A stretch of 64,000 nucleotides of DNA from an uncultured delta proteobacterium (GCA_963728565.1 CAVSLC010000023.1:192001-256000); one strand, 5' to 3'. Counted from the first letter of the stretch, positions 3,868 through 64,000 are shown. Numbers and translations are program-made. The notes: generated by a model not told the origin, from the sequence alone.

Positions 3868-4257
3868 TCACCGGAGCCCCGGACATTTGGCCGGAGTTGT
3901 CCGTCGGCCGGAACCCTGCGACTTTTCGCGACGGCACTGACACTCGGCACAAAAGGTCGTTTCAGGCGCCGTTTGGAGGCGGTGCAGTTCGATGGGCCGC
4001 CGGCAACCGATGCAAGTGCCGTAGGCGGCTTCGCGCATCCGGATCAGCGCGTGATCGATTCGTGTGGTCTCACTGGCATACCACTCAGCTAATCTTTCGA
4101 GCAGATGACGTCTGCTTTCGTAGGCCGCTTTGTCGATTGAGTGTTTATTTTCGACCAGCGTCCGTTGTTCTTGATTTAGATAGTCTAGCGTCCGCAAGAT
4201 TTCGACTCGGCGCTGGTATAGTCTTTCAAAATACTGCTCGGTTTTTTTTACGATCAT
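3868..4257 (-). CDS. TraR/DksA C4-type zinc finger protein
   Basis: Coiled coil plus YGTCIGC…RLQTAPETTFCAEC; SD AAAGGAG before ATG 4257. Confidence 0.85.
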   Translation of the reverse strand: MIVKKTEQYFERLYQRRVEILRTLDYLNQEQRTLVENKHSIDKAAYESRRHLLERLAEWYASETTRIDHALIRMREAAYGTCIGCRRPIELHRLQTAPETTFCAECQCRREKSQGSGRRTTPAKCPGLR

Positions 4258-4724
4258 CTGATCTCCTTTGCGATCCGTGCCAAAATCAGCCATAACCCGT
4301 CGCGCAGTGTCTTGACGAGTTCCTGCATCATTTCTTTGAGGCGTTTACCGTCTCCGGCGTTCAGGTAAATCGCCGCCGGCGCGTCGGGTTGCTTGAAATT
4401 ATGAACGTAGACCCAATCGCCGGGTGTGGCGCTGGAAGACACGCGCTCAGCGATCCACCGGCGCAGCGTCTCTAATTTACCGGCGCCGGTCAAACCCGAC
4501 ACAAAAATGTTGTAGCCGCTGCTCCCCACTCCGAGCCCCAATTCCAAGGCAGCGAGCGCGCGTTCCTGGCCGACGAATTCTCTCGCGCCGCTCAGCTCGC
4601 GAGTCGAGGAAAATTTGCCGGCGATCTTGGTCTCAAAGTGCAGATCTTTCGCGCTCAGCTCACGCGGGCGAGTAGAGGATTCGGTCGCGGGCTCGAGAGT
4701 TGCCAATTCACTGTCGCCATTCAT
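4254..4724 (-). pseudogene. Truncated Lon-like (LonC/AAA_32-type) ATP-dependent protease N-terminus
   Basis: FVGQERALAALELGLG…GYNIFVSGLTGAGK…DWVYVHNF motifs; similarity ends after about 140 aa, whereas family members are several hundred aa. Confidence 0.75.
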
Positions 4725-5149
4725 GCTGCTTCTCCTGCAGGTTTTTTGGCTTTCGGTATGGTCACGCGCAACACGCCTTCATAGAACTCCGCTTTGATCT
4801 GGCTGGCATCGACCGACTCCGGCAGTTTCAGGCGCCGTATGAAGTGGCCCGATGAGCGCTCCATCGTATGAAAGTGGCCGTGACGATGGGTTTCTTCCAA
4901 CGCACGGGAGCCCTGTAAGAGCAAATCGCTGTTTGCAATCTCCACCTTTACATCATCGAGCTTGACCCCAGGAAGATCAGCTTCCAACATGAAAGCATCG
5001 TCCATTTCATAGAGATCCACGGATGGATTCCAGCCGCGCATCTCACGGCAAAAGCCCCAAGGCCGATGAATCATCTCGTCGAAAAGGCGCTCCACTTCGC
5101 GCGAGACATGAATTGGAAACGAAATTAGGTCGTTCGGGGTTTTCGCCAT
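4721..5149 (-). CDS. Hsp20/alpha-crystallin small heat shock protein
   Basis: WNPSVDLYE…ADLPGV…ERSSGHFIRRLKLP…GVLRVTIPK. Confidence 0.95.
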   Translation of the reverse strand: MAKTPNDLISFPIHVSREVERLFDEMIHRPWGFCREMRGWNPSVDLYEMDDAFMLEADLPGVKLDDVKVEIANSDLLLQGSRALEETHRHGHFHTMERSSGHFIRRLKLPESVDASQIKAEFYEGVLRVTIPKAKKPAGEAA

Positions 5150-5208
5150 CGCCGCAATTCCTCCTCATTCGTGGGCTGCATACTTTACCGTGTCCCACAT
5201 CAGTAAAC

Positions 5209-5223
5209 GCAACGGCCGTGCCA
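5209..5223 (-). promoter_or_regulatory. sigma54 -24/-12 promoter for hsp20-lon'-dksA
   Basis: TGGCACGGCCGTTGC (GG-N10-GC), 60 nt upstream of the hsp20 start. Confidence 0.85.
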
Positions 5224-5270
5224 CGTACATGCTTGATTTTCTTGCCGGTTTGCAGCGAGACAGGCGGTGT

Positions 5271-5318
5271 TTCTCAAACGTGGGAAGGGGCGGCATGGTG
5301 TCTTGCAAATCTTGCGAA
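5271..5318. promoter_or_regulatory. Tandem enhancer (bEBP) sites between divergent sigma54 promoters
   Basis: TTCTCA-AACG-TGGGAA (5271) and TTGCAA-ATCT-TGCGAA (5303), 32 bp apart. Confidence 0.65.
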
Positions 5319-5347
5319 GGGGCCTCGCGCCGCCACTCAAACATTAC

Positions 5348-5362
5348 TGGCACATCGGTTGC
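5348..5362 (+). promoter_or_regulatory. sigma54 promoter
   Basis: TGGCACATCGGTTGC, 50 nt upstream of ORF 5412. Confidence 0.85.
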
Positions 5363-5411
5363 GTTTTCATCCTTCTGAAAACGAGCTCAGCATAGGAAGG
5401 ACGCTACGTCG

Positions 5412-61559: not shown

Positions 61560-61595
61560 GTGGGATCCTCGCCAAGTGAGCGTGCCACCGGCTGA

Positions 61596-62024
61596 TTAGG
61601 CGATCGATCCCACATAATGCAGGACGTTGGTCGTGGTGACCAAACCCACCAGGGCTCCATCACTGAGGACGGGCACACAACCGATTTTCTTGTTTGCCAT
61701 GAGCATCGCGGCATCTTTGATCGGCGTGTCGGGCGTCACCGTTATGACCCGTTTTTGCATAATGTCCTTGATCAACTCGTTTTTGAGCAAAGCCGATCTG
61801 CTTTTCTGCTTAAGACCAAAGATACGGTTCGCCGCGGCGCCGATAAGGTCTCGTCCGGAGATCAACCCCACCAACTTGCCATTATCCAAGATCGGAATGT
61901 GGCGAATGCGACCAAGAGAAATTACGTCACTAGCCAGATCTAGAGTATCGTTGGGGGCCAAAGTCACGGGCGAGCCCATCATAATCTCCTTTACGGTCCC
62001 GTTCTTTTGATTTTTATTTTTCAT
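61596..62024 (-). CDS. CBS-domain protein
   Basis: VKEIM…IRHIPIL…GLIS.RD…IGCVPV…GLVTTT. Confidence 0.92.
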   Translation of the reverse strand: MKNKNQKNGTVKEIMMGSPVTLAPNDTLDLASDVISLGRIRHIPILDNGKLVGLISGRDLIGAAANRIFGLKQKSRSALLKNELIKDIMQKRVITVTPDTPIKDAAMLMANKKIGCVPVLSDGALVGLVTTTNVLHYVGSIA

Positions 62025-62099
62025 ATGAGCGCTCCTCTCAGACGTGTTGGAGGCGACGCCGGAACAATATTTCGGCGCCTCCCCTTAGCGAAGAATTGT

Positions 62100-62114
62100 G
62101 CACTGTCCGTGCCA
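62100..62114 (-). promoter_or_regulatory. sigma54 promoter for CBS-ATPase-DUF1003-LDT-YcbK run
   Basis: TGGCACGGACAGTGC; partial palindrome TCCGCA-TGAA-TAAGAA at 62198; hairpin 62049-62082 in the leader. Confidence 0.75.
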
Positions 62115-62331
62115 ATCGCAGCCGGTGCTTCTTCTCGGAATTCCCGTTGGCGCCAGCGCCCGCGAGAAGTCTAAACGGCAAGAATATTCACGCTAGTTCC
62201 GCATGAATAAGAAGAGCGCGGCAGAAAAAGTTTGCATCGCCTTTGGTCGACCGCGGACCTATCTTTTGCGGTTCATCGCAGATCGCTCGAAACACCGCCC
62301 TTATGCGGCATGCCTAAGGGGCAGCGCTAAC

Positions 62332-62790
62332 TCACTGAGCTGCAATCGTTGAGTTTGCCGGCTCCGTAAATGGGTAAGGACTAGCGGACGTGCTTATTGA
62401 TCCGCGAAGGTTTGTCGCCCTCCCACTGGTGCTCACAACGCAGCGCAAAGCAGAATCGCGGTATTGAGCCGTTGACTGGCACGTAATGCCGGGACCTTGA
62501 GGCACTCCACAGGAACTGGTCTCAGTAACATTGTCGCCTCTCCAATCGAAAATTTCCGCAACAATGATACGATTTACGCTATCGGTATTAGTGGCGAAAC
62601 AAGCTGCAGTAAAGCCAGCGGGTTCATGAATGGCTGCAGTTGAGAGATGTTCAAATCTCTGGAGATGACCGGCTGTCGTTTGAAACCCGGAGCCGTCTGG
62701 CCCAACAGTCGAGGGACTTTCGGCCCGAACGCCTGCGACAAAAATAAGCATGAGAATAGTCTTGGCGATGATGGCGTAGAACAACATCAT
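62332..62790 (-). CDS. Hypothetical secreted Cys-containing protein
   Basis: SD AGGAGG; signal peptide ending VRA; four Cys; Ser/Thr-rich. Confidence 0.65.
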   Translation of the reverse strand: MMLFYAIIAKTILMLIFVAGVRAESPSTVGPDGSGFQTTAGHLQRFEHLSTAAIHEPAGFTAACFATNTDSVNRIIVAEIFDWRGDNVTETSSCGVPQGPGITCQSTAQYRDSALRCVVSTSGRATNLRGSISTSASPYPFTEPANSTIAAQ

Positions 62791-62866
62791 AAATCCTCCT
62801 TTGTGCCCATCGACCGTCATTATCTTTTTTTGATTCCTGCACTCACGCAGGCAATTAGAAATCCCA

Positions 62867-63256
62867 TTACAGATCATAGATGGGCGTCCGAATCGCCACG
62901 TGCTCGCCCATGGCGATAGCGCTGACTATGTCGGCACGGCTGACGATTCCGATAATTTTGCCGCCGTCCGTAACCGGCACCCGCTTGATAGCGTGGGTGA
63001 TCATGAGCTGGGCAATCTCTTCAACAGCGGTATCCTCCCGGACACTGACAACTTTTCTGCTCATGATCGATTTGGCATCCTTGCCTTTTTTTGCCACGAT
63101 ATCCGCTTCCGAAACGATGCCCAGGATTTTACCCTGTTCATCTACGACTGGGGCACCGCTGATCTGATTTTTGATCAAGATCATGGCTAAGTTCCTGACC
63201 TTAGTGGTCGGGCTTATGGTAATGATGTCGCGGGTCATAACATCTTTGGCGAACAT
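62867..63256 (-). CDS. CBS-domain protein
   Basis: AKDVMTRD…ISGAPVVD…GIVSEAD…IKRVPV…GIVSRAD. Confidence 0.93.
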   Translation of the reverse strand: MFAKDVMTRDIITISPTTKVRNLAMILIKNQISGAPVVDEQGKILGIVSEADIVAKKGKDAKSIMSRKVVSVREDTAVEEIAQLMITHAIKRVPVTDGGKIIGIVSRADIVSAIAMGEHVAIRTPIYDL

Positions 63257-63268
63257 TGTTTGCTCCTC

Positions 63269-64000
63269 CTAGAATCCTCTTTTGGCCATCAACATCGCGA
63301 GGTCTGCTACGCGGCAACTGTAACCCCATTCGTTATCGTACCAACTCAACACCTTGGCCATCTTGCCATCGAGCACTACCGTCGATAGACCGTCCACAAT
63401 TGCCGAAGCGGGGTTGCCGCGAAAGTCGCTGGACACCAGCGGCTCACCGCAAAAGGCCAGAATTTCCGTCATAGCCCCTTGCGCTGCCTGTCTGAAAGCC
63501 TCATTGATAGTGTCCACTGTCGCAGACTTTTTAAGATCGACGACAAGGTCAACAACAGAGACGGTTGATGTCGGCACTCTCAAGGAGATGCCATGGAGCT
63601 TGCCTTTTAGCTCCGGCATGACAAGGCCAATCGCCTTTGCCGCCCCGGTGCTGGTCGGGACGATATTCATTGCCGCTGCCCGAGCCCGGCGCAGATCCTT
63701 GTGCATCAGGTCAAGAATTCTTTGGTCGTTGGTGTAGGCATGGGTGGTCGTCATGAGACCGCGCTCGATGCCGAAATTCTCGTGAAGCACTTTGGCAACT
63801 GGCGCTAGACAGTTCGTAGTGCATGACGCGTTTGAGACAATATGGTGCTCGCGCGGATTGTAGCTGGTATCGTTTACCCCGAGAACTAGAGTAATGTCTT
63901 CGTGGCTGGCAGGCGCGGTAACGATTGCTTTTCTGGCGCCGGCGCTTAGGTGCGCGCGTACCTGGGCGGCGTCGGTAAACACTCCGGTCGCTTCAATGAC
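63269..64000 (-). CDS. gap: Glyceraldehyde-3-phosphate dehydrogenase (partial, 5' end off window)
   Basis: [42 protein letters not shown]. Confidence 0.97.

Follow-up and report, generated by a model that had tools for sequence, protein, structure and literature searches.

The window examined here is a 64-kb stretch of DNA (G000:C23:192001-256000) from an uncultured delta proteobacterium whose 4.5-Mb genome, G000, is 80.6% complete. Towards one end of it a gene for a sensor histidine kinase adjoins a gene for an NtrC-type bacterial enhancer-binding protein (bEBP), whose closest named relative belongs to a Candidatus Binatia metagenome-assembled genome (79% identity), and around this pair lies an island of candidate sigma-54 promoters. 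Genes were called with a hexamer model (4653 genes in the genome), and the labels intergenic and coding carry the errors of that model. Bare positions are those of the window, and the features at the heart of the island are the following.

8181..10760, plus strand: sensor histidine kinase, GAF-GAF-PAS-PAS-HisKA-HATPase (Pfam)
10771..10785, plus strand: weak conserved sigma-54 -24/-12 element before the activator gene
10832..10879, no strand assigned: enhancer pair before the activator start (boxes at 10832 and 10862), kept in 14 of 14 relatives
10893..12239, plus strand: NtrC-type enhancer-binding protein with receiver, AAA+ and Fis helix-turn-helix (HTH) domains (Pfam, residues)

An earlier sequence-only reading of the window had singled out 15 GG-N10-GC motifs as sigma-54 promoters, and all 15 are present at the coordinates and on the strands it gave. 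The bare motif is not enriched: the 12.8 kb of intergenic DNA contains it 127 times, and 200 dinucleotide shuffles give 121 +/- 10. The scan against shuffled sequence that the same reading had proposed does yield an excess when it is run with a fuller sigma-54 consensus, not trained on the window, in which a good site matches at least 5 of 6 extra consensus positions: the window holds 12 good intergenic sites, against 0.63 +/- 0.77 (maximum 3) in 200 shuffles. Eleven of these face the next gene, one apparently does not, and none of the good sites is coding. Their rate in intergenic DNA, 0.79 per kb, is about six times the 0.13 per kb of the rest of the genome, and among 190 sliding 64-kb windows (mean 3.6 sites at a score of at least 4) the top is held by C23 192-288 kb, with 18-22 sites, and by C10 1-80 kb, with 18 at the same score. 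The island is not unique in this respect, C10:1-96 kb being equally dense. The genome as a whole has about 18 bEBP domains and 104 listed good sigma-54 sites, and with sigma-54 in such heavy use promoter density alone cannot link the island to its own activator.

Several details of the promoter map needed adjustment. Motif 18570 falls within the longest open reading frame (ORF) of its gene, and the claim that every motif is intergenic holds there only with a start at an ATT codon, 18637, which a GGAGG ribosome-binding site and a relative mark as apparently the real one (of the only two relatives matched, G019 has ATT and G014 has ATG). The stated distance of about 25-210 nt to the next start fails for motif 19651 if the universal stress protein (USP) gene 403 nt away is meant, but a 62-codon ORF begins about 30 nt downstream. 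Three of the divergent pairs do lie within one short intergenic region each (5209/5348, 18419/18570 and 36595/36787), whereas 44375 and 44788 are 400 bp apart. Two further sites had been overlooked, 7993(-), which precedes a 37-amino-acid ORF, and the weak conserved site 10772(+) before the activator gene. Small unannotated ORFs, 7827-7940(-) with 37 hydrophobic amino acids and 19693-19881(+) with 62, stand directly after sigma-54 promoters and ribosome-binding sites.

What joins these promoters is a shared upstream enhancer of 18 bp, YTTC(G/T)CA-N4-TG(C/A)GAAR. The island set comprised 25 promoters (the window plus an extension to C23:284 kb) and was compared with 126 others in the genome. 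A first signal, TTC-N10-GAA, occurred upstream of 11 of the 25 and 7 of the 126, and Gibbs sampling converged on TTTC(G/T)CA-N4-TG(C/A)GAAA, which scores 14.5 bits where three control sets reach 10.1-11.3. With each region left out in turn, a score of 10 bits or more is reached by 17 of 25 island promoters and by 11 of the 126 others, for a p-value of 1e-9 that is overstated, as are the other p-values, because the 25 are not independent: divergent promoters share boxes, and the relatives considered below are kin. Spacing and phasing, neither of which was trained, point the same way. The two best boxes are 30-32 bp apart at 15 of 25 island promoters (0 of 17 and 6 of 109 of the others), C23:197-290 kb has 16 strong pairs and the remainder of the 4.5-Mb genome has 3, and the distance from box to -24 GG follows a 10.5-bp period (R=0.64, 17 unique island boxes). 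Palindrome enumeration over all island intergenic DNA had yielded only the sigma-54 site; it was the comparison of promoter-upstream regions that brought out the box.

The box is also kept in related genomes. At the loci of 14 relatives, all outside training, a box scoring 10 bits or more accompanies 57 of 104 sigma-54 sites, and the paired spacing occurs at 51 of 104. Near unrelated bEBPs the figures are 0 of 88 and 1 of 88; these control loci differ in taxon and GC content, and their sites were not filtered for intergenic position. The relatives' boxes repeat the 10.5-bp phasing (R=0.51, n=43), with no box at either 9 or 12 bp. Across the whole genome the best box is 10862 (21.8 bits), which lies 22 bp before the activator start and downstream of the weak sigma-54 site, and a box at this place is retained in all 14 relatives (9.9-21.1 bits). 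A predicted sigma-54 regulon with a single activator and a defined enhancer is thus well supported. That the island is instead a loose collection of sigma-54 sites divided among several of the 18 or so bEBPs, or that it answers to an FNR/CRP-type factor and sigma-70 as proposed for the lxa locus discussed below, is highly improbable. The 104 sites and the second dense island would fit such a collection, and a Crp-family gene adjoins a second heme-PAS kinase on contig C11; yet one box with fixed spacing and phasing stands at most island promoters, and FNR (TTGAT-N4-ATCAA) and CRP boxes are not enriched, with 0 intergenic matches at no more than one mismatch.

The kinase bears out its earlier assignment as a heme-PAS protein. 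Its PAS region finds its best solved-structure match in the heme domains of FixL (E=3e-28), and both PAS copies keep a His and an Arg aligned to the proximal ligand and the distal Arg of FixL (His567 and Arg587 in the second PAS). As in FixL, this predicted heme-PAS stands directly before HisKA-HATPase; unlike FixL, the kinase has two PAS copies with two GAF domains ahead of them, and its score of 333 against FixL, the best NCBIfam match (E=2e-99), does not reach that family's cut-off of 850. The partner differs as well, being a sigma-54 activator, whereas FixJ, in the FixL/FixJ system of rhizobia, is LuxR-type. DosS and DosT sense with a GAF heme and signal to a LuxR-type regulator; here the regulator is NtrC-type, and the GAF region has no match to DosS/T structures at E<=0.1. 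A single-sequence structure prediction of the second PAS was discarded at a predicted local distance difference test score (pLDDT) of 48.5. The kinase adjoins the activator in 13 of 14 loci (relatives including L001), and the orthologues vary in their N-terminal domains (GAF, HAMP, CHASE, extra PAS) around a constant heme-PAS and kinase core. In the locus of G019, the only one with no adjacent kinase, the cluster includes a protoglobin-PAS kinase at a distance of about 5.7 kb (L135:10444-12120), a possible sensor swap seen in a single case. Protoglobin gave 0 matches in G000 and 24 relatives, a set outside which the G019 match fell, and the idea of a recurring swap was rejected on the strength of G019 being its only instance.

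The activator keeps the receiver Asp, the intact GSFTGA loop that had been claimed for it, and a recognition helix reading SLSTLYRK. The loop is GAFTGA in 7 of 13 relatives' orthologues; NtrX, an NtrC-family regulator considered below, is not known to have GAFTGA. In a quick bEBP tree the orthologues form a clade with support 99. A full orthologue is present in 13 of 24 family genomes at 68-95% identity and a fragment in G008 (family counts include the unpublished genomes G012 and G018), and a phylum-wide search of 120 other genomes gave one match (G116, 60%), so that the orthologue looks family-restricted among the genomes sampled. Conservation in relatives, which the sequence-only reading had named as a check, extends to kinase, bEBP and promoter boxes alike.

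Taken together, the island is quite probably one low-oxygen regulon run by the kinase-activator pair that it encodes, and control by O2 is likely. The proposed wiring, from heme-PAS kinase to NtrC to sigma-54, is well supported by sequence, although to call it a third wiring, beside those of FixL/FixJ and DosRS, was an overstatement. In this scheme, loss of O2 from the ferrous heme of the FixL-type PAS would let the kinase autophosphorylate (a direction of switching that we assume from FixL), and the kinase would phosphorylate the activator beside it, as their conserved adjacency suggests. The activator would then bind two boxes separated by three helical turns, in most cases 45-100 bp before the -24 GG, oligomerise, and open sigma-54 promoters by way of its GSFTGA loop, one box pair often serving two divergent promoters. 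Lying between the start codon of the activator gene and the weak promoter before it, the strong pair may provide autoregulation of either sign. The output would be protection of the DosR or lxa kind, through USP, CBS, Hsp20, hibernation-promoting factor (HPF), RtcB-archease, nicotinate phosphoribosyltransferase and CapA, together with metabolic rerouting and ammonification of nitrite by nrfHA.

Several observations weigh against this reading, beyond the kinship of the promoters and the imperfect match of the control loci already described. The sigma-54 gene, rpoN, was not found in the 80.6%-complete G000, a gap that points to incompleteness of the genome given that rpoN is present in 24 of 24 family relatives. 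A box pair is absent from 3 of the 15 promoters first listed: 11 have a clear pair and 50919 a weak one, a single box stands at 42766 and at 62100, and no box is in range of 44375. The sensor is imperfect too. Three positions of the PAS FG loop are unlike FixL, and of the 13 adjacent kinases 11 keep both His and Arg, Cys replacing Arg in G017 and Asp replacing His in G022, where a second, intact kinase is present. There is an unlikely alternative in which regulon, box and activator are real, the dominant signal is NO, CO, redox or a GAF input, and the heme-PAS modulates. Its attractions are the two GAF domains with no assigned ligand that precede the PAS domains, the varying N-termini of the orthologues, the FG loop, the two orthologues in which a heme residue is lost, and the nrfHA and formate/nitrite transporter genes of the island. 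It sits less well with a heme-PAS that is the constant part beside the kinase core, with the protoglobin kinase of G019, and with a cargo that fits the hypoxia regulons DosR and lxa.

Cross-talk within the genome is a further point on the same side, and is possible because G000 has two other heme-PAS kinases (on C11 and C10) and an activator paralogue on C10 that is 61% identical, with the helix SRSSLYRK. The paralogue appears to have a box of its own, YGTC.CA-N4-TG.GACR, found at its own promoter, at its neighbours and, in-sample, at 20 of 30 C10 promoters; the model of this box also scores 8 of 25 island promoters, and a control pattern built on it is weak, with few matches (0-5 per genome). 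The C10 region (G000:C10:1-180000, L113-L117 and L141) is a second sigma-54-dense island with general-stress-looking genes, identified by eye only. The C11 kinase, FixL-type with a PAS 72% identical (G000:C11:169788-172106, L142), faces the best Crp-family gene of the genome; kinases of its type also occur in G005 and G006, in neither of which the island activator was found.

From genome to genome, box and activator also co-occur only in part. Matches to a combined box-plus-promoter pattern have a median of 8.5 in the 14 family genomes with an orthologue and, still on the unfavourable side, range over 0-8 with a median of 2.5 in the 10 without one, 9 of which have matches; 16 genomes of other families have 5 in total, and reversed controls 4. 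At least 7 of the 10 genomes in which no orthologue was found have a bEBP of the same wider clade with no receiver, another adverse point, whose helix, SLSSLYRK, is one residue from that of the island activator. Loci of this receiver-less bEBP lie inside box-bearing clusters (L162:10140-11744, L163, L164, L165:812-2417, L166, L167 and L123:1951-3530), and in 7 of 7 loci examined (6 further loci and that of G024) it is preceded by a conserved 167-amino-acid gene whose nearest named look-alikes are rubrerythrin-like. This bEBP probably reads the same box, and with its rubrerythrin-like companion it is possibly a second oxygen input. The boxes might then be read mainly by another bEBP, either this one with its partner or the C10 paralogue, the kinase-activator pair being a mere member of the island; we consider this improbable. 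Paired-box promoters do persist in G001, G002, G005, G006 and G023, where only the receiver-less bEBP, the paralogue or both were found, and the recognition helices nearly agree. On the other side, the receiver-less bEBP and its partner were not found in G000, the contig being continuous where relatives carry both; the paralogue's promoter and neighbours have a different box; and the strongest box stands at the island activator in all 14 relatives.

The low-oxygen regulon of the preferred reading has precedents in its parts. The sequence-only reading, which knew of no description of its wiring, overstated its newness: in the published NmpRSTU system of Myxococcus xanthus, a heme-dependent kinase, an NtrC-like activator and sigma-54 form a hypoxia-induced, autoregulated circuit with CBS and USP targets (PMC11841059). 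Its sensor NmpU uses protoglobin, is predicted to be active with O2 and works through a phosphorelay, and NmpR acts at 7 promoters and 23 genes (PMC11841059). Both systems have two palindromic boxes at a similar distance, about 29-30 bp from centre to centre in NmpRSTU as computed from the 14-15 nt spacing given in that paper. They differ in the sensor, a FixL-type PAS in an apparently simple pair rather than a protoglobin phosphorelay; in the box, GCGCA-N5-TGCGC for NmpR against a 4-bp spacer with TT/AA flanks here; and in extent, the island having about 20 promoters over about 90 kb. The NmpR box was tried as the island's enhancer and is not enriched at gaps 3-7; at no more than two mismatches it occurs at 1.14 per kb of intergenic DNA against 0.84, with one perfect site. 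That palindrome (33432-33446), intergenic and upstream of a phosphoenolpyruvate (PEP) synthase gene, is probably a chance occurrence of an unenriched motif. The island is a variant of NmpRSTU-type logic from which it departs in sensor and box.

Other low-oxygen regulons resemble the island in what they control. Genes listed for the DosR regulon of mycobacteria include USPs, alpha-crystallin, a ribosome hibernation factor, RtcB, a phosphoribosyltransferase, a nicotinamide-recycling gene and nitrate/nitrite transport (PMC5309233), and these classes overlap those of the island at family level only (Pfam against that gene table). The lxa locus of Burkholderia cenocepacia is described as a low-oxygen island of about 50 genes that include USPs, alpha-crystallin and a cation ATPase; a single motif recurs there at 17 intergenic points and has TGA-N6-TCA in common with Fnr/Anr sites (PMC3721108). 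The general plan and the cargo are alike, but Fnr/Anr-type boxes are not enriched in our island. PAS kinases with NtrC-family partners have been reported to bind heme in NtrY/NtrX and FlrB/FlrC (PMC9409073, PMC7240162, PMC12607845; bioRxiv 10.1101/2023.06.29.547052). NtrY differs in being described as a redox sensor, and FlrB in controlling flagella and in having a PAS that lacks the heme-binding elements, its heme sensing being disputed (PMC12607845). Sigma-54 sites before USP and CBS genes are on record for Planctomycetia (PMC12316311). Literature searches, which left most subscription journals uncovered, returned no account of such a regulon driven by a FixL-type kinase through a sigma-54 activator, and none of a Binatota sigma-54 system. 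None of three features, namely the FixL-PAS input, the box and a scale like that of DosR, was found in print.

The remaining features of the window are these.

3868..5149, minus strand: Hsp20, truncated LonC fragment and DksA/TraR zinc finger (Pfam)
5209..5362, no strand assigned: divergent sigma-54 promoters 5209(-) and 5348(+) with common boxes at 5270 and 5302
6851..6953, plus strand: box pair (6851, 6883) and sigma-54 promoter 6939 before a YbaK/tRNA-editing gene at 6992-7477
7827..8104, minus strand: sigma-54 promoter 7993(-), single box 8087, hydrophobic 37-amino-acid ORF at 7940-7827
12387..13748, plus strand: nicotinate phosphoribosyltransferase (NAPRTase)
13947..15386, minus strand: box pair (15338, 15369), promoter 15192(-), DksA-BON and CBS genes
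15679..19275, both strands: AAA_33 protein and phosphoribosyltransferase (PRTase) on the minus strand, ribosome-hibernation HPF-CSD gene (ATT start 18637) on the plus strand
within 15679..19275, no strand assigned: divergent promoters 18419(-) and 18570(+) with common boxes at 18472 and 18503
19566..22466, plus strand: box pair (19566, 19596), promoter 19651, 62-codon ORF, tandem USP, major facilitator superfamily (MFS) transporter
28655..30602, plus strand: box pair (28655, 28686), promoter 28731, HAD-ATPase fusion gene
30683..37098, no strand assigned: divergent promoters 36595(-) and 36787(+) with common boxes at 36699 and 36730
within 30683..37098, minus strand: BON, zinc ribbon, two CBS, hydrolase and PEP synthase genes
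37749..42848, minus strand: promoter 42766(-), single box 42831; archease, RtcB, phosphoribosyl pyrophosphate (PRPP) synthetase, CapA/PGA_cap
43807..44389, minus strand: promoter 44375(-) and DUF2267 gene, with no box pair in the usual range and of uncertain membership
44690..50512, plus strand: box pair (44690, 44721), promoter 44788; acetyl-CoA synthetase, pyruvate dehydrogenase (PDH) E1a/E1b/E2, gene resembling acyl carrier protein (ACP)
50832..55294, plus strand: boxes 50832 (weak) and 50863, promoter 50919; Hsp20, three tandem USP, adenosine-kinase family gene, single USP
55512..62214, minus strand: promoter 62100(-), single box 62197; CBS, split phosphotransferase system (PTS) EIIA/P-type ATPase, DUF1003 pieces, L,D-transpeptidase, DUF882
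62867..64000, minus strand: CBS and GAPDH, the island running on past the window end to about C23:290 kb

The window cargo thus includes five USP, five CBS-domain and two Hsp20 genes, with HPF-CSD, RtcB-archease, NAPRTase, PRTase, CapA, AAA_33, BON and DksA-type genes besides, and, for metabolism and transport, P-type ATPase, PEP synthase, PDH and acetyl-CoA synthetase. Beyond the window, C23:256000-291000 (L111, L112) encodes DoxX, nrfA/nrfH, a formate/nitrite transporter, FtsH, phosphorylase, an ABC exporter, sulphur transporters and katG, and box pairs, reaching 290038, precede an operon with nrfHA, DoxX, the ABC exporter and katG. The sequence-only reading had spoken of a dormancy programme. 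Protective cargo is indeed there, but the label overstates the case as an extrapolation from cargo, and because boxes also precede nrfHA, PDH/acetyl-CoA synthetase and katG, low-oxygen regulon is the safer name. Four RNA contig sets (20 RNA runs, all small shares) consisted of contigs of relatives, at 88-99% identity, that span the hsp20-usp operon; being contigs only, and not data on start, strand or level, they were not used as support. Truncated or split genes at 4254-4724, 22544-24208, 43112-43420 and 57045-61296 (LonC, FBPase, pyruvate kinase, DnaJ, DUF1003, P-type ATPase) reflect either decay or assembly indels; G014 has an 818-amino-acid Lon where the window has the LonC fragment.

Comparable arrangements occur in Acidobacteriota. 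In L036, L045 and L065 a His/Arg heme-PAS kinase lies near a bEBP, with sigma-54 sites before USP, CBS or PEP synthase genes; such kinases are present in three of the five loci compared (L036, L045, L049, L055, L065). The activators there form a separate clade (support 100 in the quick tree), and the Binatia box is replaced by another palindrome, of the CGCGG-N6-CCGCG type (12.5 bits against 8.6 shuffled), with a 21-bp spacing in 7 of 24 promoters over the five loci. A broader proposition may be ventured, tentatively and at somewhat less than even odds in our judgement: in uncultured soil phyla, sigma-54 hypoxia regulons could make up a third architecture, widespread and modular, next to those of FixLJ/FNR and DosRS. 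Within Binatia, a single activator clade with its box would take interchangeable O2 inputs, namely a FixL-type heme-PAS in most genomes, protoglobin in G019, and a rubrerythrin-like partner acting in trans on the receiver-less copy. The sister paralogue, by a one-base change of box (TT to GT), would run a general-stress regulon, and Acidobacteriota would have built the same circuit of heme-PAS, bEBP and USP-CBS genes from an unrelated activator clade with another box and the 21-bp spacing.

If the reading of the island is right, a complete circuit is in hand, comprising sensor, activator, an 18-bp box of fixed geometry and about 20 promoters, and cargo of the DosR/lxa type would stand under at least three unrelated types of regulator. 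The O2-gated sigma-54 switch could act as a tight hypoxia sensor in laboratory strains, and the paralogue with its one-base box change would be a natural case of regulon divergence. The box could serve to delimit the regulon in any genome of the Binatia and, in metatranscriptomes, as a readout of low-oxygen state, and the island would show how an uncultured lineage seen in soil metatranscriptomes handles the loss of oxygen.

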